Shown here: piece by piece, positions 33,467-53,426 of the stretch
Layout: the number at the start of each line of letters is the position of its first letter
Numbering within the stretch: the first letter of the stretch is position 1
Origin: Planctomycetota bacterium
GTDB taxonomy: Bacteria; Planctomycetota; UBA11346
Length of the DNA stretch: 64,000 nucleotides
Reading direction: 5' to 3'
Assembly (NCBI GenBank): GCA_023150565.1
Contig: JAKLKR010000003.1
Coordinates: forward strand, 17,823 to 81,822
Made by a program: the position numbers and the translations under genes
Notes under the pieces: generated by a model
Database searches by the model: none
Seen by the model: only the letters and a program-made list of their open reading frames with translations
What the model was told of the DNA's origin: nothing

Positions 33467-33503
33467 ACCCCGAACCGTTCCCCGAGCAACCCACCAGGTG
33501 CGT

Positions 33504-33611
33504 CCTACACGCGGCAGTTGGTAGCGGCAGCAAGGCGCCGACACGCGATGTGTACTGGTGTACATGAGCGTGTCGGGAACGCAGCTGCCGCCTCCAAATG
33601 CCGCGTGTAGG
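33504..33611. terminator. 108-nt multi-tier imperfect hairpin between convergent genes (bidirectional terminator or REP-like element)
   Basis: Outer arms CCTACACGCGGCA/TGCCGCGTGTAGG (13/13). Middle tier about 12/14. Inner arms CCGACACGC/GCGTGTCGG (9/9). Apical TGTAC/GTACA. The hairpin ends 1 nt from the metG stop codon. Confidence 0.6.
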
Positions 33612-33612
33612 C

Positions 33613-35640: not shown

Positions 35641-35664
35641 GGGCGGGGAGTGTGCGCCCCGCCC
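35641..35664 (-). terminator. GC hairpin GGGCGGGG-N8-CCCCGCCC, terminator-like, downstream of the flagellin gene and abutting the metG start codon
   Basis: The 8-bp perfect arms were read directly. They occupy the 24 nt immediately 5' of the metG ATG. Confidence 0.5.
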
Positions 35665-35682
35665 CGGCTCCGCCAGCGCCCG

Positions 35683-36531
35683 TCAGCCGAGAAGGCGCAG
35701 CACGTTCTGGGCGGTGAGCCCGCGCTGGGCCTGGGTGGCGATACCGGCCTGCATGAGGATGTTCTGGCTGGCCAGGTTGGCGGATTCGCGGGCGAAGTCG
35801 GTGTCGCGGATGGTGGATTCGGCACCGATCAGGTTCTGGCTGGCCACCGCCAGGCTGCGCAGCCCGGTCTCGAGCGCATTGGCCTGCACCGCTCCCAGGT
35901 CGCCGCGCTGGCGCCCGACCTCGGTCAGGGCGGTGTCCAGGCGGGTGAGGGCGTCGGCCGCCCCCTCGGTCGAGGACAGCGAGGCACCGGACAGGCCCAG
36001 CCCCTGGCGGTCGTAGCCGGTGGAGCTGCCGCCGATGGTGCTGGCGATGGTCAGGTCGATGCTCTGCCCGCTGTCGGTCCCGGTCTGGATGGAGCGGTCC
36101 TTGTAGCTGCCATCGAGCAGCTTGTTGCCGCCGTAGCGGGTGTTTGCGGCGATGGCGTCGATGGCCTTGCCCAGGGCCTGGAACTGCTTGTCGAGCACCG
36201 CCCGGGCCGAGGGGTCGAGCACCGCATCGTTGCCGGCCTGCAGGGCCAGGTCGCGCTGCTTCTGCAGCAAGGCGTTGGTCTGCTCGAGGGCGCCATCAGC
36301 CACCTGGGTCAGGGCGACGCCCTCCTCGAGCCCGTCGCTGACCCGGCTGAGCCCGGCGATCTGGGCGCGCATCTGCTCCGAGATGGAGAGCCCGGCGGGA
36401 TTGTCGGCGGCGCGGTTGATGCGCATGCCGGTGGCGAGGCGGGCAAGCACCAGCTGCATCTCGCGGTCGCGTTTGGCGAGCTGGTTCACCCCTTGCAGGG
36501 CTCCGGCCTGGTTTCCGATCGACAGGCTCAT
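35683..36531 (-). CDS. fliC: Flagellin (short, 282 aa; D0/D1 domains only)
   Basis: N-terminus 'LATGMRINRAADNPAGLSISEQMRAQIAGL' and C-terminus 'IRDTDFARESANLASQNILMQAGIATQAQ' are the conserved flagellin helices. Confidence 0.9.
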   Translation of the reverse strand: MSLSIGNQAGALQGVNQLAKRDREMQLVLARLATGMRINRAADNPAGLSISEQMRAQIAGLSRVSDGLEEGVALTQVADGALEQTNALLQKQRDLALQAGNDAVLDPSARAVLDKQFQALGKAIDAIAANTRYGGNKLLDGSYKDRSIQTGTDSGQSIDLTIASTIGGSSTGYDRQGLGLSGASLSSTEGAADALTRLDTALTEVGRQRGDLGAVQANALETGLRSLAVASQNLIGAESTIRDTDFARESANLASQNILMQAGIATQAQRGLTAQNVLRLLG

Positions 36532-36635
36532 GACGCACCCCCTGGCGGGACCACGCTCCGCCGCGCGTGCAGTCTACCACATCCGCGCGGCCAAGGGAGC
36601 GGCAGATGGAGCAACCGCCCCCATCGTCGCTGGTC

Positions 36636-36650
36636 TGGCACGGCCCTCGC
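36636..36650 (+). promoter_or_regulatory. Possible sigma54 promoter TGGCAC-N5-TCGC upstream of flhB
   Basis: Matches TGGCAC-N5-TTGC at 9 of 10 core positions. Lies about 50 nt upstream of the flhB ATG at 36702. Confidence 0.3.
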
Positions 36651-36701
36651 CCATGAAGCCAGCAAGGCCGCCGCACGTCGCGGAAGCCGACAGGAGCCGT
36701 C

Positions 36702-37766
36702 GTGCCGGAAGACGCCCAGGGCGGGGAGAAGACCGAACAACCGACACCCAAGAAGCTGGCGGATGCCCGCAACGAGGGCCAGGTGGCGGTCTCCCCCGAG
36801 GTCAATACGGCCCTATTGCTGCTGCTGGGCCTGATCGCCATCGGCCTGTGCTCGCCGTGGCTGTTCCAGGTCTCGGCGGTGAGCGTGCGCACCTGCATCC
36901 TCGAGGATCTCGGACGGGAACTGACCATCACCAGCGCGATGCAGACCATGCTCACCCTCGCCACCCCCTTCGCCGCCCCCACCGCGGTGCTGGTGGGACT
37001 GGCCTTCGCCGCCGGGCTGACCGCCTCGATCGGCCAGGTCGGGCTGCAGGCCTCGCTCAAGCCGCTGATCCCCAAGTTCAACCGGGTCAATCCGCTCACC
37101 GGCCTGCAGCGGCTGTTCGGCATGCGTGCGCTGATGCGCTTCGCGGTCAATCTGGTCAAGCTGATCCTGATCCTGTCGGTGGCCTGGCTGGTGCTGCGCC
37201 AGGACATCCCGCGGCTGGCCTACCTCGACCTCGATGTCGGCAAGCGCCTGGCCACCGACGCCAGCCTGATCTGGTGGCTGGGCCTCAAGCTGGCGGCGGT
37301 GCTGGGCCTGATCGCCCTCGCCGACCTCATCTACCAGCGCTGGCAGCACACCCAGGACCTGATGATGACCAAGCAGGAGGTAAAGGAGGAGATGAAGCAG
37401 GCAGACGGCGATCCCCTGGTCAAATCGCGCATCCGCCAGCTCCAGCGCCAGATGGCGCAGCGGCGCATGATGCAGGAGGTGCCCAAGGCCGACGTGGTCA
37501 TCACCAACCCCACCCACGTCGCGGTCGCGCTCAAATACGACGCCGGCGCCATGGCCGCCCCCATCGTCCTCGCCAAGGGCTACGACGAGGTCGCCCAGCG
37601 CATCAAGGCCATCGCCGCCGAGCACAACATCACCATGGTCGAGAACGTCACCCTCGCCCGCGCCCTGGCCAAGGAGGTCGATATCGGCAAGCCGGTGCCC
37701 ACCAAGTGGTACCAGGCCGTCGCCGAGGTGCTGGCGATGGTGTACCGGTTGAAGAAGGCGGGGTGA
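36702..37766 (+). CDS. flhB: Flagellar type III export apparatus switch protein FlhB
   Basis: N-terminus 'GEKTEQPTPKKLADARNEGQVAVS', four TM helices and the 'NPTHVAVALKY' autocleavage site. Confidence 0.95.
   Translation: MPEDAQGGEKTEQPTPKKLADARNEGQVAVSPEVNTALLLLLGLIAIGLCSPWLFQVSAVSVRTCILEDLGRELTITSAMQTMLTLATPFAAPTAVLVGLAFAAGLTASIGQVGLQASLKPLIPKFNRVNPLTGLQRLFGMRALMRFAVNLVKLILILSVAWLVLRQDIPRLAYLDLDVGKRLATDASLIWWLGLKLAAVLGLIALADLIYQRWQHTQDLMMTKQEVKEEMKQADGDPLVKSRIRQLQRQMAQRRMMQEVPKADVVITNPTHVAVALKYDAGAMAAPIVLAKGYDEVAQRIKAIAAEHNITMVENVTLARALAKEVDIGKPVPTKWYQAVAEVLAMVYRLKKAG
37627..37659 (+). repeat. 33-bp core (ACATCACCATGGTCGAGAACGTCACCCTCGCCC) inside flhB that is shared by all three flhB-3' copies; candidate att core
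   Basis: The same 33-mer, with 1-3 substitutions, occurs at 40599-40631 and 49961-49993. Copy B homology begins exactly at its left edge and copy C homology ends exactly at its right edge. Confidence 0.7.
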
Positions 37767-37975
37767 GGCCGACGGCCACCTGGGAGTAGGCGATACCCAC
37801 CAGGATGGAACTTGCCCCGGTCGCCAGCTGTGCCACCAGTCAATGCGTCGCAGGGCTGAATGCCGGCGCCGGGTGACCGACCAAGCAGCCTGTGATCCCA
37901 ATGACCACGCCCGTGTTGCGATGCGTCGTCTCTTCCAGGTCGCCCCTCGCACCAATTGACCCTGTCGTAGACACG

Positions 37976-37993
37976 TTACACTCTATGGTGTAA
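37976..37993. promoter_or_regulatory. Inverted repeat TTACAC-N6-GTGTAA overlapping the ArsR start codon; candidate ArsR/SmtB autoregulatory operator
   Basis: The perfect 6-bp arms were read directly. The last base of the repeat is the A of the ATG at 37993. Confidence 0.45.
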
Positions 37994-38355
37994 TGAAGAA
38001 CAGCATCTCACCAACCTGTACCCCGAAGGCGGACCTGGCGAAGCGACCGTTCCTCTCCAAGCGCGAGTCGGCGGACCTCGCCGGCCTCTTCAAGATCCTC
38101 GCCAATCCCGTGCGGCTGCGGATGGTGCATGCCCTGGTGGTCCAGGGACAGATACCCCTGACCGAACTGGGAGAGGCCGTCGGGCTGAAACCGCAGGCGG
38201 CCTCCAATCAACTCCAACGCCTGGTGGCCGCCGGCTGCCTGGCAAAAGAGCGACGAGGCAAGTCGGTGTTCTACCGCATCTGCGACCCTTGCGTTCCCAT
38301 CCTCATCGAACGCGGCTGGTGTCTGCTGGAAGACGCGAAAGGCCGTCGGTCATGA
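37993..38355 (+). CDS. ArsR/SmtB-family metalloregulatory repressor
   Basis: 'LFKILANPVRLRMVHAL' and 'LGEAVGLKPQAASNQLQRLVAAGCL' form the winged HTH. C-terminal Cys cluster 'ICDPCVPILIERGWC'. Confidence 0.85.
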   Translation: MKNSISPTCTPKADLAKRPFLSKRESADLAGLFKILANPVRLRMVHALVVQGQIPLTELGEAVGLKPQAASNQLQRLVAAGCLAKERRGKSVFYRICDPCVPILIERGWCLLEDAKGRRS

Positions 38356-39986
38356 CCCCGTTCCCCGACCTGGACGAAGGGTTGCATCAGTTGCGGGCCG
38401 CCACCCAGGCGAAGAAGTGCTGGACCTGCAACTGCTTTCACAGCTCGTTGCGCTCCCTGGAGCGCGAACTGCCGGCGGATCGCCGTCCGCCTGTCCTCAA
38501 CGAGGCAGTCACGGCGGCCCAGGCCGTCCTGCAACCGATCCGCTACGAGTGCCTGGGCTGCGACCCCTGCCACCCGCCCCAGGCGTTGAATGCCCTCGGC
38601 GTGGCGGGCGAGGCCTGCGGCGCCGCCCCCGTCGAATCGCGGGCGGGATGGCCGCCCCTGCCCGGAAGCTACCACGTCCTGCGCTATTCGGCGCCGGTGG
38701 CAATCTGCACCCTGACCGACGAGAATCTCGCCCACCGTATCGCGGCGGCAGGATCGCCGCAGATCGCCATCACCGGTCCCATGCAGACTGAAAATCTCGG
38801 CATCGAGCGGTTGATCGCCAATCTGGTAGCCAACCCCAACATACGATTCCTCATCCTGTGCGGGAATGACACCGAGAAGGCAGTCGGCCACCGGCCCGGC
38901 GCCTCCCTGGCCGCCCTGGCACGATCTGGCCTGGACGGGGCCAGCCGCATCATCGACGCGCCTGGCAGGCGGCCGGTCATCAAGAACCTTGATTCCGCCG
39001 CGGTCGAGCGATTCCGCCAGCAGGTGGAGATCGTCGACCGCATCGGCAACGCCGACATCCCCGCCATCCTCCATGAAGTCGCCTCCTGCGCTGCCCGCTC
39101 GCCCGGACCAGCCACGCCGTTCGCCAGCGCCCGCCAGATCGAGACCATCACCGGACGGGTTCCCGAGCGCATGGTCAGCGACCCGAGCGGGTATGTGGTC
39201 ATCGACGTCGACCGGGCCAACCGTCAGTTGGTGGTGGAGCACTACACCACGGCTGGCGTCCTCGATCTGATCATACGCGGTGCCACCGCCAACGAGGTGA
39301 TGGCACCGGTGTTCGCCAGGAATCTGGTGTCGCGCTTGGACCACGCCGGGTATGTCGGCAAGGAGTTGACCCGTGCCGAGGCGGCCTTGCGCAGCGGCGA
39401 CGGATTCACACAGGATGCCGCGCCCGAGCAGCGTCGTGTCGCCATCGAGTCGGCCGCGTCCTGCGGCAGCGGCTGCGCCTGCTACGCTCCACCCGCACCC
39501 ACGTCCAACCCACACGCCGATTGCGGATGCGCCCCGCAGCTGGAGTCGTCAATGACCACCCGCACGAAGCCCGTCCTGGTCGTCGTTGGATTGCTGGCTC
39601 TGACGGCCGTCGCCCTCGGCCTCCGCACGACTCGGTCGTCAGCCGGTACCGCCGAGTCTCCGGCAAACCCGCCGGCGAATGCCGTGGATGCTCCGCTCGG
39701 CATCAACGCTTTCATGCAAATGGAGCGCCAACCGAAGGAAGCGGTCGCGGTCCAGGGTGTCGTCAACGGCCACTTGGCCGATCAGCATCTCCTGTTGCTC
39801 GTCGATGACGCGGATGGGGCCTGTGCCGGCCAGTCCTGCTGCGCGCCGCTGATCCTGCCGGTTCGTTGGCCCGGGACGGTACCGACCAACGGAACGGCGG
39901 TGATCGCCACCGGACAATTCGGAACCGAGGGCGGCAAACAGGTCTTCCTGGCGACGAGCGTCGCCCCTCGCGGAGGCAAGCCGTGA
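38352..39986 (+). CDS. Cys-rich membrane-anchored MtrA-like (corrinoid-binding fold) plus DUF4346-like protein, 544 aa
   Basis: ATGA overlap with arsR. N-terminal CWTCNC...CLGCDPC. MtrA-like blocks 'SAPVAICTL', 'ITGPMQTENLGIERLIANLVANPNIRFLILCGND..AVGHRPGASLAALARSGLD'. DUF4346-like 'DPSGYVVIDVDRANRQLVVEHY'. 'CGSGCAC..CGC'. TM helix 'PVLVVVGLLALTAVALGL'. A ~120-aa tail with 'CAGQSCC'. Confidence 0.7.
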   Translation: MTPFPDLDEGLHQLRAATQAKKCWTCNCFHSSLRSLERELPADRRPPVLNEAVTAAQAVLQPIRYECLGCDPCHPPQALNALGVAGEACGAAPVESRAGWPPLPGSYHVLRYSAPVAICTLTDENLAHRIAAAGSPQIAITGPMQTENLGIERLIANLVANPNIRFLILCGNDTEKAVGHRPGASLAALARSGLDGASRIIDAPGRRPVIKNLDSAAVERFRQQVEIVDRIGNADIPAILHEVASCAARSPGPATPFASARQIETITGRVPERMVSDPSGYVVIDVDRANRQLVVEHYTTAGVLDLIIRGATANEVMAPVFARNLVSRLDHAGYVGKELTRAEAALRSGDGFTQDAAPEQRRVAIESAASCGSGCACYAPPAPTSNPHADCGCAPQLESSMTTRTKPVLVVVGLLALTAVALGLRTTRSSAGTAESPANPPANAVDAPLGINAFMQMERQPKEAVAVQGVVNGHLADQHLLLLVDDADGACAGQSCCAPLILPVRWPGTVPTNGTAVIATGQFGTEGGKQVFLATSVAPRGGKP

Positions 39987-40576
39987 ACCGCCTGACCCAG
40001 GCCATCTGGTCCATTGGTGGCTTCATCGGCGTCTTCTCCCTCCATGCCGGCTGGCATGCCCTCTTGCCCAGCACGGTCGACGCCGCCCAGTCGCGCTGGG
40101 TGACGGTGCCGACGGCCGCTCCGCCCTGGCATCAGACCTACCTGAACGGGGGCGATGTGTGGCTCGGCCTGTCCATCGCCAGCGCCGGAGCCTTCGCCAC
40201 CTGGGCGATCCGCCGCTGGTGGCTCCGCCGCACCGCCCTCATGGGGGTCGCCGGCGGCGAACTGCTGATCCCGACCTGCGTCCTGCTGTTCGGGGTCGAT
40301 CTCAAGCTCGCTGGCAGCCTGGCGATGGCGGTCAGCCTGCCAACCATGCTCATGGGATTCGTCCGCTACAGCCGCGATCCTACCTTCGCCGTCATCAGAC
40401 GTGAACGCCGTTTCCTGGCGTTGCTCTGCCTGGGATCGCTGATCGGGGTCGCTCTGGGTGGTCTGCTTCTGGGCGCCGTGCCGACCGATTGGCTCCTCGG
40501 TGGTCTGTCGTTCATCCTCGCCGTTTCAACCCTGAAGACGTGGATGCACGCCCAGCCGGCAGCACGCACCTCGTGA
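39983..40576 (+). CDS. TauE/SafE-family permease, half-size (197 aa)
   Basis: GTGA overlap with the upstream stop codon (GTG start). 'GVAGGELLIPTCVLLFGVDLKLAGSLAMAVSLPTMLMGFVRY' and 'LGSLIGVALGGLLLG' resemble one TauE repeat unit. The N-terminal third is atypical. Confidence 0.55.
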   Translation: MNRLTQAIWSIGGFIGVFSLHAGWHALLPSTVDAAQSRWVTVPTAAPPWHQTYLNGGDVWLGLSIASAGAFATWAIRRWWLRRTALMGVAGGELLIPTCVLLFGVDLKLAGSLAMAVSLPTMLMGFVRYSRDPTFAVIRRERRFLALLCLGSLIGVALGGLLLGAVPTDWLLGGLSFILAVSTLKTWMHAQPAARTS

Positions 40577-40598
40577 TTGCTTCTCGCTCCATTAATCC

Positions 40599-40740
40599 AC
40601 ATCAGCATGGTCGAGAACGTCGCCCTCGCCCGCGCCTGGCGAAAGTGGTCGACATCGGCAAGCCGGTGCCCACCAAGTGGTACCAGGCCGTCGCCGAGGT
40701 GCTGGCGATGGTGTACCGGCTGAAGACGGCGGGGTGAGGG
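40599..40740 (+). pseudogene. Displaced or duplicated flhB 3' end (copy B), frameshifted
   Basis: Aligns to native 37627-37769 at about 93% identity with a 1-bp deletion near 40639. It encodes ...VVDIGKPVPTKWYQAVAEVLAMVYRLKTAG* versus the native ...VDIGKPVPTKWYQAVAEVLAMVYRLKKAG*. Confidence 0.9.
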
Positions 40741-40851
40741 TGAGGCCGGCAGCTGTACCGACCCAAGGAGAGAGTTGATTCGTCTATACGATGGTCATTG
40801 CTGCCATTGACAGGAGACGAACCACATGTTCGGAGGTGACGTCAATCAACT

Positions 40852-41994
40852 TCAAGCTGGGACCACTACACGCGGCTCGACGAAGATGGTCCGCCAAGGA
40901 GCCGTTGGTGCGGCTTGGCGCTCTAGCGCCAAGTCCGCCATGCGAGCCCCGATCTCCACGTTGCACTTGTCGACGGTCGCCAGCGGCGCTCCGGGGAAGT
41001 GCGCCATGTCCCAGTGCTCGCTCCAGAAATCATCGTATCCGGCCACCGGCACCGGAGCTCCGTGCAGGACCGCAGCTTCGCGGCAGGCGGCGACCCAGGC
41101 GTCCGAGGGGGCCAGGATGGCGTCGATGCCTTGGCATCGTCCGATCAGGTTGCCTGCCACAAGCCGGATACGTGCCACGGCGTGTTGGCGGGCGCGGCCG
41201 CGCATCAACACCCCGTCGCCATGCAGGCGCACCTCGGGCAGCGGTGCAATCCCCAGGCTGGCGCAGGCACGTGTGTATCCCGCCAGTCGCTCGCACGTCC
41301 ACGATTTGGCGGCTTCTGGCAGGACGGGCAGGATACGGCGATAGCCCAACCCGACGAGATGCCGTGTCAGGGCCTCCCAGCCGGCGGCATGGTCAGACAG
41401 CACATGATCGGCCTCCTCGAGCAAATGCTGCCCGCTGAAGATCGCTATGGCAGTACCGGCGGCGCACAGGCGTCCACACAACCGGCGCAACCAGTCGTCG
41501 CTGCCGGGGTGGTATTGACCGGGCTGCGACTCGGGGACCAGCAGCATGCCGGGTGGCGAGGCGGCGATGGCGGCCAACGACCCCTCGTCGAGATGGGCGA
41601 CATCGACCGAGCGTACCTGCCTGCCCGCCGCCTTCAGGCGCTGAACCGCGCCCAAGGTGATGAAATCCGACCAGCCTGGGGCGGCCCGAGATTCCGTCAC
41701 GGTCAGCGAGGAGGCGGCAATCAACGCCGTGCCGCGATCGAGAGGCGGCAGCGAGGGCGCCATGGCCGCACCGTTGGGCATGCGGGCGATGATGCGGCGG
41801 TAGCCGCCCAGATGGCGGATGACGCCCTCCTGCTCCAGCCGCCGCACGGCATGACGCACCATGACCCGGCCGCAGTCGAGGCGCATGGCCAGATCGCGCT
41901 CGGACGGCAGGCGCTCACCGACCGCCAGGTGGCGTTCGAGGATCTGCCGACGGAGCTGCTCGAGGACGGCATCGACACCGGTCGCGCCGCTCAT
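40852..41994 (-). CDS. AraR-type chimeric regulator: GntR-family winged HTH plus LacI/PBP1-type sugar-binding domain
   Basis: N-terminus 'LPSERDLAMRLDCGRVMVRHAVRRLEQEGVI' is a GntR HTH. The remainder is periplasmic-binding-protein-like, as in LacI effector domains. Confidence 0.7.
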   Translation of the reverse strand: MSGATGVDAVLEQLRRQILERHLAVGERLPSERDLAMRLDCGRVMVRHAVRRLEQEGVIRHLGGYRRIIARMPNGAAMAPSLPPLDRGTALIAASSLTVTESRAAPGWSDFITLGAVQRLKAAGRQVRSVDVAHLDEGSLAAIAASPPGMLLVPESQPGQYHPGSDDWLRRLCGRLCAAGTAIAIFSGQHLLEEADHVLSDHAAGWEALTRHLVGLGYRRILPVLPEAAKSWTCERLAGYTRACASLGIAPLPEVRLHGDGVLMRGRARQHAVARIRLVAGNLIGRCQGIDAILAPSDAWVAACREAAVLHGAPVPVAGYDDFWSEHWDMAHFPGAPLATVDKCNVEIGARMADLALERQAAPTAPWRTIFVEPRVVVPA

Positions 41995-42426
41995 GGCGAC
42001 CCAGCCTGCTCCGCCATCAGCTGAGTGTGGCCCGCGGGCATCACGGCGACGCGGGCGTCGGGTCCGGCCAGACGGCTGGCGACATGCAGGCCGGGAGTCA
42101 CGGACATGTCCATCGACTTTCCGGGCGGCAGCATGCGGTCAAGACGATGCTGCATGTCGAGATGCCGGCAGACGTAATCCCCGCGCCACCAGCGGCGCGC
42201 AGGTCGGTGCCCAGGCAGACGAAGGACCTGCCGACACTGGCGGCGGCGTCCTCAGACGGCGGCGCAAGCTGTTGTCCGCCCGGCTCAACCAGCCACCAGC
42301 GAGGCCAGGAGGGGGCGCCATGCACGCTTCCACGGGAGGGTGCACGCAGCCACAGGCATGTGCCCTCCTTCGATGGGGAATCTGGCGTTGAGGCGCCCCA
42401 AACGCGGGGAAAAGCCTGCTGCTGAT

Positions 42427-43794
42427 TCATGGCCGCACGCCTCCTGTCGCCGGCCCCTTCGCTTCGCCTCCCGCATCCGTGGGGAATGGCCGGATGTGGA
42501 TGCCCTGCGCGGCATCCATCGGCGTCTCCTGGAACTCCAGGGCTGAGCGCGCATCGGCCTGTTCCTGGCGCAGGACGACGTTCTGGCAGGCAAAGCCCTG
42601 GACGCCACGCGCATAAAGGCCCCACACGGCCAGGGCTCGTGCGTTCTTGCCAGGTCGGTCGAAGGCGCGAGGCACCTCGTCCGATGCCCGCCAGGACACG
42701 TCCACATCGCGCAAGGTGACGGCGCGGATCCAGCCGCCATCCCACCCCTCGAAACTGAGTGGCGCACGGTACTGGCCGGTGACCCGCAGGCGTTCGACCA
42801 GAAGCCCGTGCAGCGAGCAATCGCGCAGGGCGACCACGTGCAGGGCCGTGGTGACCGCCTGCATGGTCAGGTCGCGCAGCACAATGCCGCTGCTGGCGCC
42901 GGCCATGCCGGGATCCCAGGCCGCCGGCTGGATGCAGATGCCGGCCAGCATGTTGGTACGTCCGCTGGTGCGGTGCGGACGCCCACCGGGGCCGATGAAG
43001 GTGCAGCGCTGCACCTCGAAGCGGTCCACCGGGCCAATGATGCGCACGCCGTTGCACGACGAGTTGATGGCGCAGTCCTCAATGGTGAAGCGTCGCAGAA
43101 AGCAGCCGGCGATGCTGTCGTCACCGGTCACGAAGCGGCATCGCCTGATGGTGATGCCATCGCTCCACTGCTCAGCCGAGCCGCGCAGGTGCACGCCGTC
43201 CCAGCCGCCGTCAAAGGAGCAGTCCTCGATCACCACCTCGTTGCAGTGATGCATGAGAAGCGCGTAGTTGCCGGAATCGCGAATGGTGATGCCGCGGATG
43301 GCGAGCTGGGCGCAACCACCCAGCATGATGGTGTGCGGCCCGCGGATGCGCTCCTCGCCCGCCGGATCGGTCACCGCCCCGCCATCGACGGTGCCGGCAC
43401 CGGTGATCGATACGCGCTGGACGCCTTCGGCGAGGATTAGGCTGCGCAGCCGGTTGCGGGCCGGCAGTCGGGCGTCGGCTCCGCTGTAACCCGAGTAGGT
43501 CTCCGCATCCGCATGGCCGCGCAAGGTGGCACCGGCTGCCAGATGCAGTTCGATGTCGGACTTCAGGCGGAGCGTGCGGGTGAGGAACACGCCAGGGCCG
43601 ACCACGACCCGACCGCCGCCACCGACGGCGCAGGTATCGATCGCCGTCTGGATGGCGGCGGTGTCATCGGCGACGCCGTCGCCGATGGCGCCGAAGGCGC
43701 GGGGGTCGTGGTCGAGGGCGGCGAGGCTGGTCATGGTCGCGGCGAAGAAGATGGCGATGGCGGTGTTGCCCCCGCCGATGGGGAGTCGGTTCAT
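42427..43794 (-). CDS. GH28-like pectin-lyase-fold glycoside hydrolase (exported or anchored)
   Basis: 'FGAIGDGVADDTAAIQTAID', 'GWDGVHLRGS' and 'TGDDSIAG' (GDDxIA motif). ATGA overlap with the upstream gene. Confidence 0.65.
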   Translation of the reverse strand: MNRLPIGGGNTAIAIFFAATMTSLAALDHDPRAFGAIGDGVADDTAAIQTAIDTCAVGGGGRVVVGPGVFLTRTLRLKSDIELHLAAGATLRGHADAETYSGYSGADARLPARNRLRSLILAEGVQRVSITGAGTVDGGAVTDPAGEERIRGPHTIMLGGCAQLAIRGITIRDSGNYALLMHHCNEVVIEDCSFDGGWDGVHLRGSAEQWSDGITIRRCRFVTGDDSIAGCFLRRFTIEDCAINSSCNGVRIIGPVDRFEVQRCTFIGPGGRPHRTSGRTNMLAGICIQPAAWDPGMAGASSGIVLRDLTMQAVTTALHVVALRDCSLHGLLVERLRVTGQYRAPLSFEGWDGGWIRAVTLRDVDVSWRASDEVPRAFDRPGKNARALAVWGLYARGVQGFACQNVVLRQEQADARSALEFQETPMDAAQGIHIRPFPTDAGGEAKGPATGGVRP

Positions 43795-46337
43795 GGCCAC
43801 ACGAACAGGGGGAAGAGGGTGGGATCCTTGCCTCCGTCGATGCCGGGGGCGAGGCGGATGAGGCCCTCCCGGCACTTACCTGCAGGATCGTCGAGATCCT
43901 GGACGAGCAGATTCAGGCGCAGGCCGGTAGTGAGGTCGCCGGCCTCGAACCCGAACGGGGCGAAGGGCAGTTCGAGCCGGTAGACGGTCTCGTCTTCTCC
44001 GCGCTCGACCTGGGCGGTGAGCGCATTGACCGCCGCTGCGGCGTTCCTTCCCGTCGGCGCGATCCAGGCGTGGCGCAGCATGTGACCGTCATCGCCGCGG
44101 GCGAACCCCAGTTCCCACCAGCCGGCCATACCCGGGGCCTGCATGGCGAGCTGCAGGCAGTCGCCGGCCCACATGCCGGCTTTGTCGAACGGCTGGCGAT
44201 GAACATCATCCCGCACGCGTACCAGCAGCCGAAGGGATTGCTGCGTGCGGTGCAGCCAGGCGCGGACCGACAAGTCCTGCGCTCCCTTCCAGGTCAGGTG
44301 CATGGTGGTCGGATCGACATCGTTGCTGTTGACCACCTGGTGGGGGCGGTCGAGGACGATGTCGGGCGCGCGGGCATCGCCACCGCCATCGGGCACCAGG
44401 GTGGCCAGCACCACGGGCACCCGCGTGCTGGCCATCAATCCACCGATGTCGGCATTGAGGATGATGGCCGCATCGCCGGACAGGCTGGCGCCCAGCGGAC
44501 AGTCGATGCGCAGAGCGATCGACTGCTCGGTGCCGCCGGCGATATCGATCACCTGCTCGGGCTCGGGCAGGATCAGCGGGGCAGGTGCATTCGCACCCAG
44601 GCGCACCCGCACCGGCGTGGTCCCGCCCTGGCGCAGCCGCACCGTCAGCTCGGCCGGCCGGCCGGGGACGGCGGCCAGCACCGGCTCGCTGCGCAGAGCC
44701 CAGCCGTGCACCTCGGGACGGGCGCCAGCCCGGCGCAGCACCAGGTAGCCTGGCTCGCGCGCCACCGTCCACAGCACGCGGCCGTTCTGCACAGCCAGGG
44801 AGGTGCGATTGCCCATGAGGTCGATCGCCTCGGCTGCGGTGGCCTGCGGGCATGCGACTACCAGGGCCTCGGCGGTGGCGGTGGCGGTGGCGTTCCAGCC
44901 GACCAGCACCCAGTCGTCGGCGCTGCCGCCGTCGATGCTGCCCGCCCCTTGGAAGGCGCCGACCCAGCGCTCGCAGCCGGCCGCCACGGCGCCGTCGGGC
45001 CGCCGTCCGCGCAACATGCGCGCCATCGTGTCGTAGGCGATCCAGGCCGGACGCGGCGACCAGTCCGGCCAGAACATGGCGTAGGTGTCGGCACTGCCCC
45101 CCGAGCCGTCGCTCCAGATGGTGAACCAGTACCAGCCCTTGGCACCGGTGGCCCACGACCATGCCCCCTTCTGCACCAGGATGGCGGCCTGGTCGCGGTC
45201 GCGCCCGCGCTCGCGCCCGACGGCTGTCTCCGTCCAGTAGAGCTGTCGATCGGCCGCTCCATGCTGTGCCATGAGTGGACGTAGCGATCCTTCGATCTCG
45301 TCGCGCATCATCTCCCAGGTGCCATGGCGGTGGTAGGCCAGCCAATCCCAGGTGCCGGTGGCCTGCAGGGTGCGTACCAGGACGTCGCGCCGATGGGTCG
45401 GGTGGTCCATGTTGGCGAAACCGCCAGTGGTGACCACGCAGGCCGGATCCGCGCGCTTCAGCTCCTCGTGGGCGATGGCCAGCAATTCGACGTACTCCTC
45501 GGCGCTGCCGCGCCAGAACGGCAGGTCGGGCTCATTCCACACCTCCCAGGTGGTGACGCGGCCGCGGTAGCGCTCGGCCAGGCTGCGCACCCAGCTGCGC
45601 CACAGCTCCGGGCGCGGCGGGTAGGTGGCCAGCGGCCAGCGCCGCCGGACATCGATGCCGGCAGCCGCGGCGCGCGCCAGCGTCTCGGGTGACTTGGTCC
45701 AGGCGTTGCCGCCATAGGCGATCAGGCCGAGCGGCGCCATGCCAAGGGCGATCGCACGGTCGATCTGCGCGTCATAGCGGTCCCACCGCATGGCGCCCGC
45801 CGTCGGTTGCACGGTGGACCAGTCGAGGTCGATGCGCACATGCTCGGCGCCCACCACAGCGATGGCACGGGCAGCGATGGCCTCACGCTCGGGTGTGCTG
45901 TCGATGGTCGAATTGCCGAGGTGGAAACCGTCCTCGACTCCGGCCGTGATGCCCACGGGGGCGAACACCGCGCAGGTGGCCAGGCCATCCCGTCGCGCAT
46001 CACCAGCGTGGGCGCTCCAGAAGGCGTAGCGGATGGCGCGCCGGCTGCCCAGGCAGTCGGCCGGCACATCGACATCGACAGCGCCAGCGGCCGGCACCAC
46101 CACGTCGACCGGGGCAGGCAGGACCGGAGATCCGTTGGGATGGTCGGCGATCGTCCAGGCGAAGCGCAGGCCAAGCGTCGTCGCACCTGTGTTGGCAAGG
46201 CGCAGCTTGGCGCCAGCGCCCGGTACGACCACGCGCAGGGGATCACCGGTCTCGAATGCCACGGATAGCGATGCGAGGGGACCAGCCTCGCCGGCCGCGA
46301 GCAGGCCGACGAGAAGGATCAGGGGGATGGAACGCAT
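43791..46337 (-). CDS. Exported clan GH-A TIM-barrel glycoside hydrolase with a C-terminal CBM9-like domain
   Basis: Signal 'LILLVGLLAAGEA'. 'VRIDLDWSTVQP' and 'TWEVWNEPDLPFW' are GH-A signatures. The C-terminus 'DKAGMWAGDCLQLAMQ' is CBM9/DOMON-like. Confidence 0.7.
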   Translation of the reverse strand: MRSIPLILLVGLLAAGEAGPLASLSVAFETGDPLRVVVPGAGAKLRLANTGATTLGLRFAWTIADHPNGSPVLPAPVDVVVPAAGAVDVDVPADCLGSRRAIRYAFWSAHAGDARRDGLATCAVFAPVGITAGVEDGFHLGNSTIDSTPEREAIAARAIAVVGAEHVRIDLDWSTVQPTAGAMRWDRYDAQIDRAIALGMAPLGLIAYGGNAWTKSPETLARAAAAGIDVRRRWPLATYPPRPELWRSWVRSLAERYRGRVTTWEVWNEPDLPFWRGSAEEYVELLAIAHEELKRADPACVVTTGGFANMDHPTHRRDVLVRTLQATGTWDWLAYHRHGTWEMMRDEIEGSLRPLMAQHGAADRQLYWTETAVGRERGRDRDQAAILVQKGAWSWATGAKGWYWFTIWSDGSGGSADTYAMFWPDWSPRPAWIAYDTMARMLRGRRPDGAVAAGCERWVGAFQGAGSIDGGSADDWVLVGWNATATATAEALVVACPQATAAEAIDLMGNRTSLAVQNGRVLWTVAREPGYLVLRRAGARPEVHGWALRSEPVLAAVPGRPAELTVRLRQGGTTPVRVRLGANAPAPLILPEPEQVIDIAGGTEQSIALRIDCPLGASLSGDAAIILNADIGGLMASTRVPVVLATLVPDGGGDARAPDIVLDRPHQVVNSNDVDPTTMHLTWKGAQDLSVRAWLHRTQQSLRLLVRVRDDVHRQPFDKAGMWAGDCLQLAMQAPGMAGWWELGFARGDDGHMLRHAWIAPTGRNAAAAVNALTAQVERGEDETVYRLELPFAPFGFEAGDLTTGLRLNLLVQDLDDPAGKCREGLIRLAPGIDGGKDPTLFPLFVWP

Positions 46338-46345
46338 GGAATTCC

Positions 46346-47125
46346 TCAGTAGCGAGCGTACCAGCGGTTGGGTGGCGCATTGCTGGGTATGAGGTTGGCC
46401 TGGAAGGTGGCGGTATCGGAAGGCATCGCCATTTCGACGCGACCGTCATAGCACAGGACGTTGGAGCGGCCTCGATGGTTGACGCGCCACGACGCATATG
46501 TCCATGGTCCGTTCATGGTCGGAGTGCGGCGCTCGCCGGCGACGTAGCCGCGGGCGGCGATGTCGATCTTGGCGCTGATGTTGGTCGAGGTCCCATCGGT
46601 GTTGATGCCCCAGATCTCGCTGACGGCGATGGTCTGGCTGGGTTGCGGAACGCGAGACCGGACGATGCCGCTGAATCCGCCGGCCATGCCCTGGCTCGCA
46701 AGAAGAGACGCCGGAAGATTGGCGTTCATGCCATAGCTGGACATGAAGAACTGTGCCGCATTGCCGATCTGCGACCGTTTCCAATTGCCGTCCGGACATG
46801 CAAAGTAGGCAGGCGGCTCCAGTGGCCTGACGTCCAGGTGCCCGGCGATCTTGGCGGTCCAGTGTCCCCAGTGGGTGTTCTGGTTGGAGGTGCCCCACGG
46901 TCCGCCCATATCCGCAGCCGCCATCTCCCAGAACGGGAACTGCCCGTCCCAGTCGTTGGCGTAATCCTGCAGCGCCAAGCCGATCTGCCTGAGGTTGTTG
47001 GCGCAGACGGCAGTGCGAGCGGTACTGCGCACCAGCGAGACTGCCGGCAACAGCATGGCCGCCAGGATGGCGATGATGGACACCACGACCAGCAGTTCGA
47101 TGAGAGAGAATGCGCGCGTTGTCAT
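46346..47125 (-). CDS. Type II pseudopilin-like protein: prepilin N-terminal methylation domain plus DUF1559 with an H-X9-DG motif
   Basis: '[26 protein letters not shown]' and '[12 protein letters not shown]' (H-X9-DG). Visibly lower GC than the core genes. Confidence 0.85.
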
Positions 47126-47661
47126 GGTGTCTTCTCCATGGTTTCATAGCCGGGAGGACCAGGACGTTCTTCAAGGATGCGGCCGAGCGAACCGATCAAC
47201 ATAATGCGATCGATGCGTGTGCCGCCACGGCCGAGTACGGCTAGAACATGGGCTACCGGCCATTGCCCCTGCTCGGGATGGGCGAGGCCGACGGCGCTCG
47301 GCCACAACAGGGCGTGGGTCCCGGCGGCTGTGGCATCGACCCGCTGGCCCTGGCCGAGCAGGGCGACAAGAGATGTCAGCGAACGCCCCTGCATGGCGAG
47401 GACTGCGGCGGCAGCACTCGCCGTTGCTGGCTGCGGCAGCAGGTCTGGCACGGGTACCTGTCCCCCGGTCAGCCACACCTCGCCACCGCGCCCTTCGAAG
47501 GCGGTGCGATCTACGCTCGGTGTTGATTCATGCATGAGCCAGAGCGAACCTGTCACCGCCACGGCCGCCGCCGTGAGCAATAAAACGGCTGCGCGTGCTG
47601 GGAACCGGTTCGAGTGAGGTCCTGCCGGTTTTCGATGTGAAGCACGGCCCGAGTTGCTCAT
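47122..47661 (-). CDS. Hypothetical single-pass membrane protein (179 aa)
   Basis: ATGA overlap with the downstream DUF1559 gene. TM helix '[20 protein letters not shown]'. No family recognised. Confidence 0.5.
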
Positions 47662-47794
47662 GATGCTGCTCTGCGGGTGTTGCCTCTGATGATACCTTCG
47701 ACAGCTGACAACCGCCAGTCCGAGGCACTGGGCCTCCGGGCTGAATGCAGATGCTGCGGCCAGAAATGACACCAGTGGGCGCTGGCGACCCCGT

Positions 47795-48952
47795 TCACGG
47801 CGACACGCGACGACGATAGACACCATCGGTCCATGCCAGATACATCCAGGATCCCGCCTGGGCAAAGGAACGGCCGCTGTAGACATCGCGCAGAGGCCAT
47901 ACTTCGATGACGCGCGTGGTGCCATCCTGGGCGATGAGGGGCACGCGCAGCGGAACGGCGCCAGGCCGGCGTCCAAGGGGCAAGCCGGTACTGGCCTGGC
48001 GCCAACCCGCGCCGCGATCATCACTGATCCACACGCCATCGTCGGAGGCCAGCCAGATGCGATCCGGCTTCGCCCGATCCCACACCACCGGGCCCGTGCC
48101 GCCTCCGGCGCGAATGCGGATCCACGACTCACCGGCGTTGTCGCTGCGGTAGATGCCACTGGCCGTCTGCACCACCAGACCGCCCTGATGGTACCGATCG
48201 ACATCGAGGGCAAAGGCCATGTCGCCCTGCAGCGGCATGCCAGAATAGTCGACGGAAGCACGGTCGATGCCGTCGCTGGTGCGCTGCCAGGTCAGGCCGC
48301 GATCGTCGGAGCGGAACACGCCGGCCCGCTCCCCCTCGCCGGTGGCATAGACCGCGATATGTATGCGGCCCCGGCGATGCGGATCGTGGACGATTGCCGT
48401 GATGGTCAGCGATACGTCCGTGCCCGCGCTGGCTGTCGTTCCCGTGGGAAGGCCGGCGGTCACGCGCTTCCAGCGCCGTCCGCCATCGTCGGATGCATAG
48501 AGTCCTCCATCCGTGCCAAGCAGCGCCCGGCGCGGATCCTGCGGGTCCAGCGCCAGGCTGACGGCATTCATGCCACGACCACGGCGGATACCGGCATTGC
48601 TGGCCGTCCACGTGCGGCAGTCGTCTGCGCTGATCCACACGCCGGAGCGCTCGTAGCCAAGCAGCCATCGGCCGGGTGTGGATGAATCCTGCACCATGCC
48701 GTTGTTCACCCCCACGGCGCCGTCGGCATCGGTGGGCGGAGCCCCATGCCGGGTCCAGGTGACGCCGCCATCGCCGCTGCTCCACACTCCGAAAGGACGG
48801 GTGGCACACCACAGGCGCCGCTCGTCGGCGGCATCGCAGCGAACCTGGTAGGCGATGGCTGTGCCGGGCTCGAAGCCCGGCCCAATGGGTTGCCAGGCGC
48901 CCTCGTCTGAGGCGAGAATTCCGATGGAGGCGAGCAGGAGCAGACTGCGCAT
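47795..48952 (-). CDS. Exported BNR/Asp-box beta-propeller protein (sialidase/GH74/Ycf48-like fold)
   Basis: Signal 'LLLLASIGILA'. At least six Asp-boxes: SGDGGVTW, SADDCRTW, SDDGGRRW, SDDRGLTW, SDNAGESW, SDDRGAGW. Confidence 0.8.
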   Translation of the reverse strand: MRSLLLLASIGILASDEGAWQPIGPGFEPGTAIAYQVRCDAADERRLWCATRPFGVWSSGDGGVTWTRHGAPPTDADGAVGVNNGMVQDSSTPGRWLLGYERSGVWISADDCRTWTASNAGIRRGRGMNAVSLALDPQDPRRALLGTDGGLYASDDGGRRWKRVTAGLPTGTTASAGTDVSLTITAIVHDPHRRGRIHIAVYATGEGERAGVFRSDDRGLTWQRTSDGIDRASVDYSGMPLQGDMAFALDVDRYHQGGLVVQTASGIYRSDNAGESWIRIRAGGGTGPVVWDRAKPDRIWLASDDGVWISDDRGAGWRQASTGLPLGRRPGAVPLRVPLIAQDGTTRVIEVWPLRDVYSGRSFAQAGSWMYLAWTDGVYRRRVSP

Positions 48953-48959
48953 GGCCGCC

Positions 48960-49526
48960 CTACTTCGCCACACTGACATCGTCGATGAAGATTTCGCCTG
49001 CCGGACTGTCCGTGGCGCTGAAAGTGACGGCGTAGCCGTGCAGGCGCACGGGCAGGTCGATGACCTTGTCGACCTTGCCGCTCGGCCCCCAGCTGCCGTC
49101 CGGCTTGGCCGCATTCAACGGTATGACCACTTCCCGCCAGCCCTGGCCCCTGGGGACCTTCACCCGCCATTGGAAGACCTCCTCATTCGCGTCGCGCAGG
49201 CGGATGGCGAACTGTTCCACCTGGGCGTCGGGCCCCAGGTAGAGCCAGGCGCGCGCCTCGCCAGCGACGCCCGCGTCGAACATGGTCATCGGCACTTGCG
49301 ACAGATACGAGCAGTCCGCGTAGATTACTTGCCTGTTCGGCCACGACAGGCGCAGGGCTGTGCCCTTGCGGCCGTCCGGCGCGCTGACCAGGGAGACCTC
49401 CGACTTCATGCCATCGGCACCGTGTCCGCGCAGCCCAAGACGGCTGGCCTCGAAATCGTCGATGGTCACCGCCGCGGCGGTGCTGGCCGCGAACAGGTGA
49501 CAGGCAAGGAGGTGGACTGATGTCAT
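48960..49526 (-). CDS. Small exported CBM/CIA30-like beta-sandwich protein
   Basis: Signal 'LLACHLFAASTAAA'. 'VTIDDFE' at the N-terminus and 'GEIFIDDVSV' at the C-terminus are typical of CIA30/CBM11-type modules. Confidence 0.55.
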   Translation of the reverse strand: MTSVHLLACHLFAASTAAAVTIDDFEASRLGLRGHGADGMKSEVSLVSAPDGRKGTALRLSWPNRQVIYADCSYLSQVPMTMFDAGVAGEARAWLYLGPDAQVEQFAIRLRDANEEVFQWRVKVPRGQGWREVVIPLNAAKPDGSWGPSGKVDKVIDLPVRLHGYAVTFSATDSPAGEIFIDDVSVAK

Positions 49527-49601
49527 GGCTGCCTCGGGCTGGGAGGATCCGGTCTGCGCTACAAACCAAATACCAAATTTGGGTCATCTGTCAAGCTGCA
49601 G

Positions 49602-49865
49602 TCAAGCCCAGCCACGACGCAGACGCGAGTCAGGGGATGCGATGGATCCACATACGAGGACGATCGCCCGGCATCGGCGTCCAACCTGGCAAGACTGGGT
49701 GCGCGCGCCGCAGGCATCATTGCAGCCGATAGCCAGCCCAAGATCATGAAATTTGACCAGGATGACATTCAGTCGTCTCGGCATCTCAGCGCCAGCGCAG
49801 AGAGCGGACGCCAGCAAGGGCAGCAGGACGAAACACACAAGTTCCTCAGAAGATCCATTTACCAT
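49602..49865 (-). pseudogene. Possible N-terminal remnant of a sulfatase gene
   Basis: 'LVCFVLLPLLASALCAGAEMPRRLNVILVKFHDLGLAIGC' resembles a sulfatase signal peptide plus 'NIILI..DDLG.GDLGC'. It degenerates afterwards ('VCGSIASPDSR' in place of 'CxPxR'). Lies in a low-GC region. Confidence 0.3.
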
Positions 49866-49917
49866 TTTAGGAAATTTACCGCATGACGTAAGGCGCCAAC
49901 ATCGGACGAACAGCAAG

Positions 49918-49993
49918 ACGAGGTCGCCCAGTGCATCAAGACCATCGCCGCCGAGCACCACATCACCATGGTCGAGAACATCGCCCTCGCCCA
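49918..49993 (+). pseudogene. Third partial copy of flhB 3' sequence (copy C), ending at the 33-bp core
   Basis: Aligns to native 37584-37659 at about 90% identity. It would encode DEVAQCIKTIAAEHHITMVENIALA versus the native DEVAQRIKAIAAEHNITMVENVTLA. Homology stops abruptly after ...CCCTCGCCC. Confidence 0.85.
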
Positions 49994-50255
49994 TGGTCGG
50001 GTGCACCGAGTTCATCGACGCGGCCTGGCAGTACGGGGATGGATCCGAAATAGCCGCTACCTCTGACCCCGGTTTATTCCCCGTATACCGCTTCTATGAA
50101 ACAGCTTATGACCGCATCATGCGGGCGGTTTTCAAGCTCGAAAGCCGGTCTCCGCTGCCAGTTGCGCCCCCTTCAACGATGGCGCGTGGCGTAGCGGGGA
50201 GGGGTGACGATCTGCGCGCGACCAGCGTGCTACCAACCAGGCCGATGTGGTAAGG

Positions 50256-52047: not shown

Positions 52048-52394
52048 TAAGGAGGCCGCACCGTCGGCTCGGTGGCGATGCTCGAGCCCGCCTGCACCAG
52101 CCAGCCACGCATGGCTTCCGGGCGGGGACGGATGGATAGGTCGTGGCCGCGCGTGGTCGGCACACCGCAGCGCCAGTGGATCGCCGCCACCCGGCCTCCT
52201 GGGCGAACCGCCGCCACCGCTGAGCGGAGCAGTGCGCCCAGGTCCTCGCAGTGGGGCAGGTTGAACAGAAGCACCAGGTCGGCGCTGCAAGGATCAACGC
52301 CCAAGGAGGTCGCGAGAATACCGCCCAGACGCGTCTGAACCTGCCCAAGCCCGGCTTCCCGGGCTCCCGATGGCCACCCCTTTCTGTATCGGCC
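52048..52394 (-). pseudogene. Class I SAM-dependent methyltransferase remnant: 5'-truncated at the cupin stop codon and split by the IS (its 3' part continues at 50106-50255)
   Basis: 'AREAGLGQVQTRLGGILATSLGVDPCSADLVLLFNLPHCED...LRSAVAAVRPGGRVAAIHW' corresponds to motifs post-I to IV of type-11 methyltransferases. The GxGxG motif I is missing. The frame is the same as the cupin gene and begins right after its TGA. Confidence 0.55.
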
Positions 52395-52712
52395 TCAGGC
52401 CGGGCGCATCATGGTCAGCAGCCAGCGCGACGGCTGCTCGGCGCGCACCCCATGTGGCAGGGCGGCCGGCAGCAGGATCACTTCGCCCGCCACCACCGCG
52501 TGCAGCGCCTCGCCGACGGTGACCTGGAGGGCGCCGTCGAGCACCTGGACCAGGGCCGGGAAGCGCACGGTGTGGGCGCTGATCGCCTGGCCGGCGTCCA
52601 TGGCGAAGAGGACGATCTTGCAGCCGTTGGCCTCGTGGATCGGGCGGGAGACATTGGCCCCGGGCACGATGGGGGCGGCGTCGAGCAGGCGGAGCGGGGC
52701 GGGGGTATCCAT
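52395..52712 (-). CDS. Cupin-domain protein (105 aa)
   Basis: 'KIVLFAMDAGQAISAHTVRFPALVQVLDGALQVTVGE...GEVILLPAALPHGV' is the two-motif cupin pattern. Confidence 0.75.
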   Translation of the reverse strand: MDTPAPLRLLDAAPIVPGANVSRPIHEANGCKIVLFAMDAGQAISAHTVRFPALVQVLDGALQVTVGEALHAVVAGEVILLPAALPHGVRAEQPSRWLLTMMRPA

Positions 52713-52790
52713 GCCGGCAGCCTAGCGGGCGGGGTCCGGCAGGGCCATGATCCAGATCAACCCCACCCGACGGCTGCGGGCCGGGCTTCA

Positions 52791-53396: not shown

Positions 53397-53426
53397 GATC
53401 CCTCAGCGGGATGGCCCGGATCGCGA

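Follow-up and report, generated by a model that had tools for sequence, protein, structure and literature searches.

The flhB locus and its repeated 3' end

The window analyzed here, a stretch of 64,000 nucleotides (nt) from an uncultured Planctomycetota bacterium with a GC content of about 70%, contains an intact copy of the flagellar export gene flhB that is followed by two partial copies of its own 3' end. Both partial copies lie downstream of flhB in direct orientation, and one of them closes each of two islands of other genes. An earlier annotation made without database searches (the sequence-only reading) had proposed that the 3' end of flhB is a hotspot of recurrent insertion with at least two stacked foreign layers. 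This proposal was supported by the borders of the region in two related loci (L162 and L166), by a junction in a third (L165), and by the recurrence of the arrangement in other lineages of the clade. The locus is composed of the following parts, given with window coordinates and strand.

36702-37766, plus strand: intact flhB (Bac_export_2); the order methionyl-tRNA synthetase (MetRS), flagellin, flhB is kept in L162
37770-40598, plus strand: island 1, with a GC content at third codon positions (GC3) of 0.78 to 0.82 and with family matches; also found after flhB in L165 (run X5)
40599-40740, plus strand: copy B, corresponding to about 37627-37769 of the native gene end (BLASTN match 40599-40739); junctions on both sides present in runs X1, X4, X6, and X7
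40741-49916, minus strand for all genes: island 2, with a GC3 of 0.75 to 0.85; present in X1, X4, X6, and X7 and mostly absent from X5
49917-49992, plus strand: copy C, 93.4% identical to native 37584-37659
49993-50250, minus strand: left part of segment Z, variable DNA with the 3' end of a weak, 5'-truncated methyltransferase-like open reading frame (ORF)
50251-52047, minus strand: ISNCY-family insertion sequence (IS), with a transposase of 522 aa at 50442-52010 and a 7-nt duplication (TAAGGAG) at both ends
52048-52394, minus strand: right part of segment Z, with a GC3 of 0.77, ending at the right border of the variable region
52395-52712, minus strand: cupin gene (Pfam Cupin_2; GC3 of 0.94), the first conserved core gene on the right, kept in L166

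The intact gene, which ends at 37766 as had been read from the sequence, encodes 354 aa with a full-length match to Bac_export_2 in Pfam (E value of 2.7e-119) and has a GC3 of 0.94. The last 183 nt of flhB (37584-37766) and 3 nt past the stop codon are the parent of both partial copies. By BLASTN and a repeat search, copy B (40599-40739) was matched to native 37627-37768 at 93.7% identity, with 8 mismatches, 1 gap, and an E value of 3.9e-57, and copy C was matched with 5 mismatches and an E value of 8e-28. The sequence-only reading had described copy B correctly, at about 93% identity and with a frameshifting 1-bp deletion, which was located opposite native 37665. It had also recognized copy C as a repeat of 37584-37659, although it placed the copy one base too far to the right (49918-49993). 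The base deleted in copy B is present in the copy-B unitig of run X6; thus, the deletion is polymorphic and hence recent.

A segment of 33 nt occurs in all three copies (37627-37659, 40599-40631, and 49960-49992) and varies at positions 7, 21, and 24. Both its existence and its variable positions had been noted before, and it had been regarded as telling that the homology of copy B starts, and that of copy C ends, exactly at its edges. This is true by construction and carries no independent information, because the segment is the overlap of a fragment starting at 37627 with a fragment ending at 37659; it is therefore not evidence of an attachment (att) site. No convincing dyad or recombinase-binding symmetry was seen by eye around the CCATGG of this segment. 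A 9-mer, CCATGGTCG, lies directly after copy C (49985-50000) and is identical to a 9-mer within the shared segment (37633-37641). The idea that it marks a second, diverged flhB end was rejected, as the translation had no similarity.

The differences between the copies and the native gene end were then considered by codon position. Four differences of copy B are states common with the orthologues in L162 and L161 and missing from the native gene, and these look like allelic differences; four further changes are unique to copy B and mostly nonsynonymous. In copy C, which is cut off on its right side and recurs with the same right end in X4 and X12, all five differences are nonsynonymous and fall at first codon positions. 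Altogether, first, second, and third codon positions all contribute to the differences between copies and native gene, whereas orthologues differ mainly at third positions (81% of differences). This pattern, together with the nonsynonymous unique changes, indicates that the displaced ends once served as working ends of flhB and have begun to decay. Counts of synonymous and nonsynonymous changes gave a pattern that fits imported and in situ copies alike. After 37650, the native 3' end diverges from L162 at 8 of 117 positions versus 4% for the whole gene, which is not significant, and the idea that the intact 3' end is visibly foreign was dropped. A simple tandem duplication was rejected, since islands 1 and 2 are unrelated and the copies differ by 6 to 7%. 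Silent cassettes for C-terminal variation of FlhB, of the pilin type, were rejected as well; the copies are conserved and decaying, and FlhB is cytoplasmic or membrane bound.

The borders of the variable region were given by close relatives, which were reached via protein clusters and Logan runs. Scans with FlhB of reference genomes, JGI data, and metagenome contigs gave no close relative (best, 63 to 68% aa identity), and no record matched the exact FlhB protein sequence. The JGI contig L162 is 94 to 95% identical in nucleotides to 28497-37766; its similarity stops right after the flhB stop codon and is followed by a DinB-family gene. On the other side, L166 matches the window at 93% nucleotide identity from the end of the H+-pyrophosphatase (H+-PPase) gene through Blc to the cupin gene, and the similarity is lost exactly at the cupin stop codon (52395), with 9.6 kb of other genes following. 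As the two relatives diverge exactly at these stop codons, the variable region is 37770-52394, bounded by flhB and the cupin gene with their converging 3' ends, and it is a hotspot of horizontal transfer. Island polymorphism among relatives was found (L162, L166, and L165), and L162 and L166 carry other genes at this site. The right core had been taken to begin at a methyltransferase gene; that gene lies inside the variable region, and the homology with L166 begins at the cupin gene. The ORF in question is weakly methyltransferase-like, as proposed, but is only a 5'-truncated remnant (PDB methyltransferase matches with E values of 0.5 to 0.8). It has no real similarity to the methyltransferase beside flhB in L161, a relationship that was tried and rejected.

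Base composition agreed with these borders. Island 1 (GC of 0.668) and island 2 (0.678) are less GC-rich than the left core (0.724) and the right core (0.703), as the sequence-only reading had remarked. The codon usage check that it had suggested separated islands and core much better than GC, with a GC3 of 0.75 to 0.86 for every gene inside the variable region versus 0.93 to 0.98 for the flanking genes.

The window comes from an activated-sludge metagenome, and run X1 contains 97% of its sampled words. Other runs, such as X4 (sediment) and X6 (groundwater), were compared on the basis of assembled unitigs and contigs. X1 unitigs break only within repeats, and each of the five junctions between unique and repeated DNA lies inside a single X1 unitig with an even depth of 7.5 to 10 (37719-38857, 38840-40676, 40711-45644, 45616-49971, and 49950-53729). 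Each of them was also recovered from one or more further runs or samples (X4, X6, X7, X12, or locus L165). The repeats are real.

Island 1, copy B, and island 2 are arranged alike in X1, X4, X6, and X7. In X5 (locus L165), the flhB end is followed by island 1 at 96.4% identity with a different right junction. There, the stop codon of the TauE fragment (40576) is followed by an flhB-like piece, which agrees with 37614-37638 at 22 of 25 nt, and by unrelated DNA beyond it, without copy B and island 2. This piece stops right after CCATGG. No joint linking two repeats, which would mark excision or an empty site, was found in contigs of X1, X2, X4, X6, and X7, whose unitigs drop rare variants, and loose-end sequences of other runs had no match among the fetched sequences. 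The flhB gene of L161 (1185-2249) is mosaic, with about 14% divergence over the first 720 nt or so and about 3% over the last 350 nt or so, which implies recombination with a breakpoint that would lie near window position 37420. In L161, a methyltransferase gene stands upstream of flhB in place of flagellin.

The genes recognized within the two islands are listed below.

37993-38355, plus strand: ArsR/MarR-type helix-turn-helix (HTH) gene (island 1)
38352-39986, plus strand: MtrA-like/DUF4346 gene (island 1)
39866-40576, plus strand: ORF with a TauE end, which is only the N-terminal 100 aa or so of a TauE permease (island 1)
40852-41994, minus strand: GntR-HTH/periplasmic-binding-type regulator (island 2)
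42427-43875, minus strand: GH28-like beta-helix protein (island 2)
43791-46337, minus strand: protein of 848 aa with a weak GH39 match (island 2)
46346-47125, minus strand: DUF1559/N-methyl protein (island 2)
47795-49114, minus strand: BNR/sortilin-repeat protein (island 2)
48960-49526, minus strand: ORF of 188 aa with no family match (island 2)

The MtrA-like/DUF4346 protein (544 aa) extends about 150 aa beyond the 390-aa family model, and the start codon of its gene overlaps the stop codon of the ArsR-type gene (ATGA). This ArsR-MtrA pair is conserved in L163 (81% aa identity) and L164 (58%), where it stands in other chromosomal contexts. A sulfatase remnant read earlier in island 2 had no family match. 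No tRNA gene is present in the region, and the main ORFs tested, both those of 37770-52394 and those in the rest of the window, had no integrase domain (PF00589, resolvase, or recombinase), in agreement with what had been read. That inventory, correct as to the integrase, had missed the IS with its intact transposase. In the left core, at 25119-28987 on the minus strand, two adjacent DUF2961 paralogues form part of a long run of glycoside-hydrolase-type genes.

The IS resembles other members of the ISNCY family in its full-length transposase above the curated cutoff (NF033593; 342 bits versus 325), its short target duplication, its presence or absence between strains, and its copies in other contexts. 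Its terminal inverted repeats are imperfect (about 11 of 16 positions in a manual alignment of the ends). A contig of X4, which lacks the IS, fuses 50250 to 52048, with the 7 nt TAAGGAG fitting either side, so that the two halves of segment Z are contiguous and the empty IS site is seen. The IS occupies this site in X1 and X2, is missing there in X4, and occurs in another context in X6. Therefore, it is a recent, strain-polymorphic late passenger that does not explain the flhB repeats, which lie outside it. The possibility that it truncated copy C was rejected, because it begins 258 nt past copy C and X4 has the same copy C end without it.

Recurrence and boundaries of flhB 3' copies in the clade

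Partial flhB 3' copies downstream of the gene were found in at least five other lineages of the clade, whose FlhB proteins are 53 to 69% identical to that of the window.

L001: 251 nt at 87% identity, 2.8 kb downstream, with a PBP-like and a chemoreceptor gene in between
L083: three copies (94%, 80%, and 88%) with spacings of 1366, 486, and 349 nt and short ORFs of the same strand in the gaps
L084: 42 nt, where the contig stops
L085 (same lineage as L167-171): 80 nt at 81% identity, past an ankyrin-repeat gene
P0008 contig: a Bac_export_2 ORF of 104 aa, 4.3 kb downstream of flhB

When clade loci with at least 1 kb downstream of flhB were counted, 4 of 13 contained partial copies, versus 0 of 127 flhB loci of other phyla (p of about 5e-5, hypergeometric estimate); L172 and L176 had none. 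A list of direct repeats from clade loci totalling about 250 kb is dominated by those of flhB, and few other genes show anything of the kind. No integrase was found among the main ORFs tested in the 14.6 kb of the variable region and in about 5.5 kb (L001) and about 10 kb (L083) past flhB. Gene tables with precomputed Pfam assignments likewise contained none in about 4.4 kb of L167, in about 10 kb of the P0008 contig, or for L167-171.

Several of these loci have features of their own. At 9200-12260, L083 carries a cassette-like array past flhB, whose four short ORFs run in the same direction as flhB; beyond it are genes for HipA and PhyH. In this array, a stretch of about 100 nt before copy 2 (about 10310-10430) recurs at the end of a later cassette (about 12105-12225) with about 82% identity. 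In L084, four 10-nt tandem units (GGTTCGAAGC) built from boundary flhB sequence stand before the partial copy (11270-11330). L006 contains an integron integrase gene on the minus strand (4632-6083; TIGR02249, 406 bits, with a 165-aa N-terminal extension), convergent with flhB. The contig ends 200 bp beyond this gene, and no repeat is visible on such a short contig; two long palindromes (about 4300-4345 and 4385-4442) occupy the spacer between flhB and the integrase gene, and the integrase had no relative in a viral contig collection. In L008, a direct repeat of 177 nt (11217-11393 and 13248-13424; 80%) begins 150 nt past flhB, without overlap with it, and flanks about 2 kb near a Cas1 gene.

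The left ends of the partial copies were placed on window coordinates, as follows.

37504: L001 and an X7 unitig
37559: X12, fused directly to the flhB stop codon
37584: copy C
About 37611: L165
37625-27: copy B
37632: L083, twice
About 37690: L167
37696: an X4 unitig
About 37702: L084
37720: fourth copy of L083
37723: an X17 unitig

The left ends thus take at least 9 distinct positions among about 13 copies and spread over about 220 nt (37504-37723), and the sequence to the left of the boundaries has no conservation between lineages. Most right ends are at or just past the stop codon, but copy C and the piece in L165 are cut short, at 37659 and 37638, respectively. A loose cluster at 37625-37638, on the left edge of the 33-nt segment, includes the junction at which copy B begins, those of two copies in L083, and the right-hand junction of the L165 piece. 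We estimate that about 13 boundaries over 220 nt would give about three near-coincidences by chance, and the few that were observed are therefore not compelling. In general, the independent insertions displayed partial clustering only, rather than a shared crossover position or an identical core.

Possible origins of the stacked copies

Repeated one-sided insertions at the flhB 3' end would account for all the data. Among the mechanisms considered, homology-anchored sequential displacement is the best, and we adopt it tentatively; both the recombination route and the order of events are what we infer. DNA from related strains or genera would enter with one end within flhB. The last 465 nt or so of the gene, the only stretch that is well conserved in DNA across the clade, would act as the homology anchor for a single crossover within flhB, and the far end of the incoming piece would join the resident flhB 3' region illegitimately or via very short homology. 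Each event would yield an intact hybrid flhB, the downstream genes of the donor, and the resident flhB 3' end together with its old downstream DNA. Successive events would stack with the newest beside flhB, giving the native end, island 1, copy B, island 2, copy C, and segment Z. The displaced ends, no longer selected, would decay, and the ISNCY element would have landed later in segment Z. No element-encoded recombinase would be required.

The locus has the features of such a displacement, namely, a conserved anchor next to non-homologous DNA, stacked direct-orientation remnants (two in the window and three in L083), and variable joints. Across genera, nt 600 to 1065 of flhB are 74 to 84% identical, versus 53 to 67% for the first 600 nt. 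Exact runs of 17 to 44 nt occur only in the conserved part of flhB, and the downstream DNA is unrelated between lineages. Because its 3' part is conserved and flhB is the last gene of the conserved MetRS-flhB block, incoming DNA can cross over within flhB. The cargo is ordinary: island 1 ends in a truncated TauE gene, and its ArsR-MtrA pair is chromosomal in L163 and L164.

A similar layout was found at a second gene of the window. The 3' end of a GH42 beta-galactosidase gene (ORF 1-1065; 3' end at 958-1069) is repeated 372 nt downstream (1330-1441) at 87% identity. The two copies flank 264 bp of AT-rich, hairpin-rich DNA that is different in X4, in the same order of intact end, insert, and displaced end as at flhB. 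A palindrome, GGGGCCACACCACC...GGTGGTGTGGCCCC, lies at 1100-1144 (also at 1270-1305 and 1493-1504). It occurs on several contigs of X1, X4, and X7 with different flanks, which suggests that it is a dispersed REP-like (repetitive extragenic palindromic) or terminator-like element of the genome.

Several observations weigh against homology-anchored displacement. Homology-facilitated illegitimate recombination is rare in experiments (PMC5361080), and at least 10 such events would have to be assumed for a single gene. Coincident left ends occur in L001 and X7 (37504) and, within 5 nt, in copy B and L083. The repeated stretch of about 100 nt in L083 has the look of a defined terminus of an element. 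In X1 and X5, island 1 stops at one and the same base (40576) although different sequence follows, which would not be predicted for a random joint. In L006, an integron integrase gene lies only 420 bp past flhB.

Some of these observations would be expected from site-specific integration, which we consider possible but unlikely. Here, the islands would be non-autonomous elements in tandem whose attP mimics the flhB 3' end, and a tyrosine recombinase would have acted in trans or been lost. The layout, an intact target with direct-orientation 3' fragments of which one closes each island, is canonical for such a process; the native end and copy B flank island 1, and copies B and C flank island 2, with copy C lacking the part past 37659. 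The process would also account for flhB being hit specifically and clade-wide, when repeats of this kind involve few other genes of the clade loci (about 250 kb). The junction cluster at 37625-37638, the boundary common to L001 and X7, the repeated element-like end in L083, and the tyrosine recombinase of the integron-integrase type beside flhB in L006 all point in the same direction. Tycheposon islands push older elements outward likewise, with scattered partial tRNAs (bioRxiv 10.1101/2020.12.28.424599).

Against this explanation, neither an integrase nor a remnant of one was detected in the arrays of which several kb were examined. The number of left boundaries leaves no common core, and the DNA to their left is not conserved between lineages. 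The last gene of island 1 is truncated. X1, X4, X6, and X7 share one fixed arrangement with no excision-type joint, and the GH42 locus would require a second, different integrase. In addition, a 26-nt pattern of the proposed core was absent from the viral contig collection. Site-specific att recombination, which the sequence-only reading had put forward on the strength of the 33-nt segment, was thus disfavored by the scattered left ends, by the integrase-free arrays, and by the truncated TauE gene.

A different and rather improbable explanation is that, in one clade of Planctomycetota, promoterless foreign genes are captured at the conserved 3' end of flhB, which would serve as their dedicated landing pad. 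Such a system could use a trans-acting recombinase with a relaxed crossover position or an unusually efficient one-sided homologous route. The L083 array, with its four ORFs in flhB orientation, provides an example of what would be captured. If true, this would be an integron-like gene-capture site without its own integrase, a system so far undescribed. As for integrons proper, no intI gene is present in the window, and the L083 cassettes are split by flhB fragments and, as judged by eye, not by palindromic attC sites ending in GTTRRRY. The intI gene of L006 is convergent with flhB, so that its array would lie on the other side. A diversity-generating retroelement was also considered; no reverse transcriptase was found among the ORFs tested, and the mismatches between the native end and copy B involve all four bases.

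Still less probable, in our judgment, is a duplication of the target upon insertion, in which the resident flhB 3' segment is copied by staggered-break repair or template switching and the downstream copy then decays. The right ends of the repeats, always at or just past the stop codon when the left ends vary, would fit such copying, as would the substitutions, about half of which are at third positions, as expected of one constrained and one decaying copy. An X12 contig, in which 37766 is fused to 37559 as a 208-nt tandem duplication without cargo, also resembles a bare duplication, but this joint is a single unitig in a complex metagenome. The four states that copy B has in common with L162 and L161 fit different alleles better, and there is no known mechanism for duplications of 44 to 263 nt that always end at a stop codon.

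Finally, an assembly artefact, in which the contig would chain flhB-downstream regions of coexisting strains via the shared repeat, has a negligible probability: several flhB variants are present in the sample (extra unitigs at depths of 11 to 30), and a 66-nt stretch identical in the native end and copy B (37683-37748) is beyond the reach of 31-mer unitigs, but the junctions 40598|40599 and 49916|49917 and those between a fragment and the next island lie within single unitigs, again in X4, X6, X7, and X12, the depth is even over all parts, and the same architecture occurs in unrelated assemblies (L001, L083, and L167-171).

Comparison with known systems

To our knowledge, the mobile-element biology of Planctomycetota is almost unknown, and our literature search found no report of flhB as a target of insertion or integration. 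The locus is a clear natural example of foreign genes piling up beside a conserved housekeeping gene that stays unbroken, and its scars recur across genera of a poorly studied phylum. If the route is independent of integrases, the flhB fragments are field evidence for homology-facilitated illegitimate recombination, so far known chiefly from transformation in the laboratory. A recombinase, on the other hand, would make flhB a new attachment site. In practice, the repeats break assemblies at this locus, and many clade contigs end shortly past flhB, which is a warning for binning and annotation.

The closest parallels to homology-anchored displacement are the effector-immunity arrays of the type VI secretion system in Vibrio cholerae and the C-terminal displacement of Rhs and contact-dependent inhibition (CDI) proteins, which are integrase-free and have been attributed to homology-facilitated illegitimate recombination (PMC5361080; Jackson 2009, as cited therein, for displacement at polymorphic-toxin loci). 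As at flhB, these arrays have a conserved upstream anchor, a new module beside the gene, and older 3' parts stacked downstream as orphans. No integrase is involved, and finished arrays spread between strains by ordinary homologous recombination. The two differ in what is displaced. The 3' ends of the toxin genes are variable toxin tips that come with immunity genes and are selected, whereas the 3' end of flhB is a conserved part of a housekeeping flagellar export gene. Its displaced ends are useless and apparently decaying, and the cargo (regulators, glycoside hydrolases, and others) is unrelated to the gene. In both cases, the mechanism is a proposed one.

Tandem accretion at the 3' end of a gene is also represented by cis-mobilizable elements and integrative and conjugative elements (CIME/ICE) at fda in Streptococcus thermophilus. 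Tycheposon islands at tRNA genes in Prochlorococcus belong to the same type (bioRxiv 10.1101/2020.12.28.424599). In both systems, the insert brings a replacement 3' end and leaves the target intact, each layer is bounded by a partial copy of the target, older inserts are moved outward by newer ones, and cargo-only layers without an integrase exist. In contrast to the flhB arrays, they have a fixed crossover, identical att cores, integrases or remnants in the islands, and demonstrable excision. At flhB, the boundaries are scattered, and neither an integrase (in the arrays examined) nor a sign of excision was found.

More generally, chromosomes contain integrase-free hotspots of gene flux between core genes, as described in pangenome studies. 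The flhB locus is similar in that the same core genes (flhB and cupin) enclose different gene sets in close relatives and in the mosaicism of the flanking gene. However, plain replacement by a double crossover leaves no duplicated pieces of the flanking gene. Thus, the stacked flhB fragments indicate that one-sided events also occur at the flhB locus.

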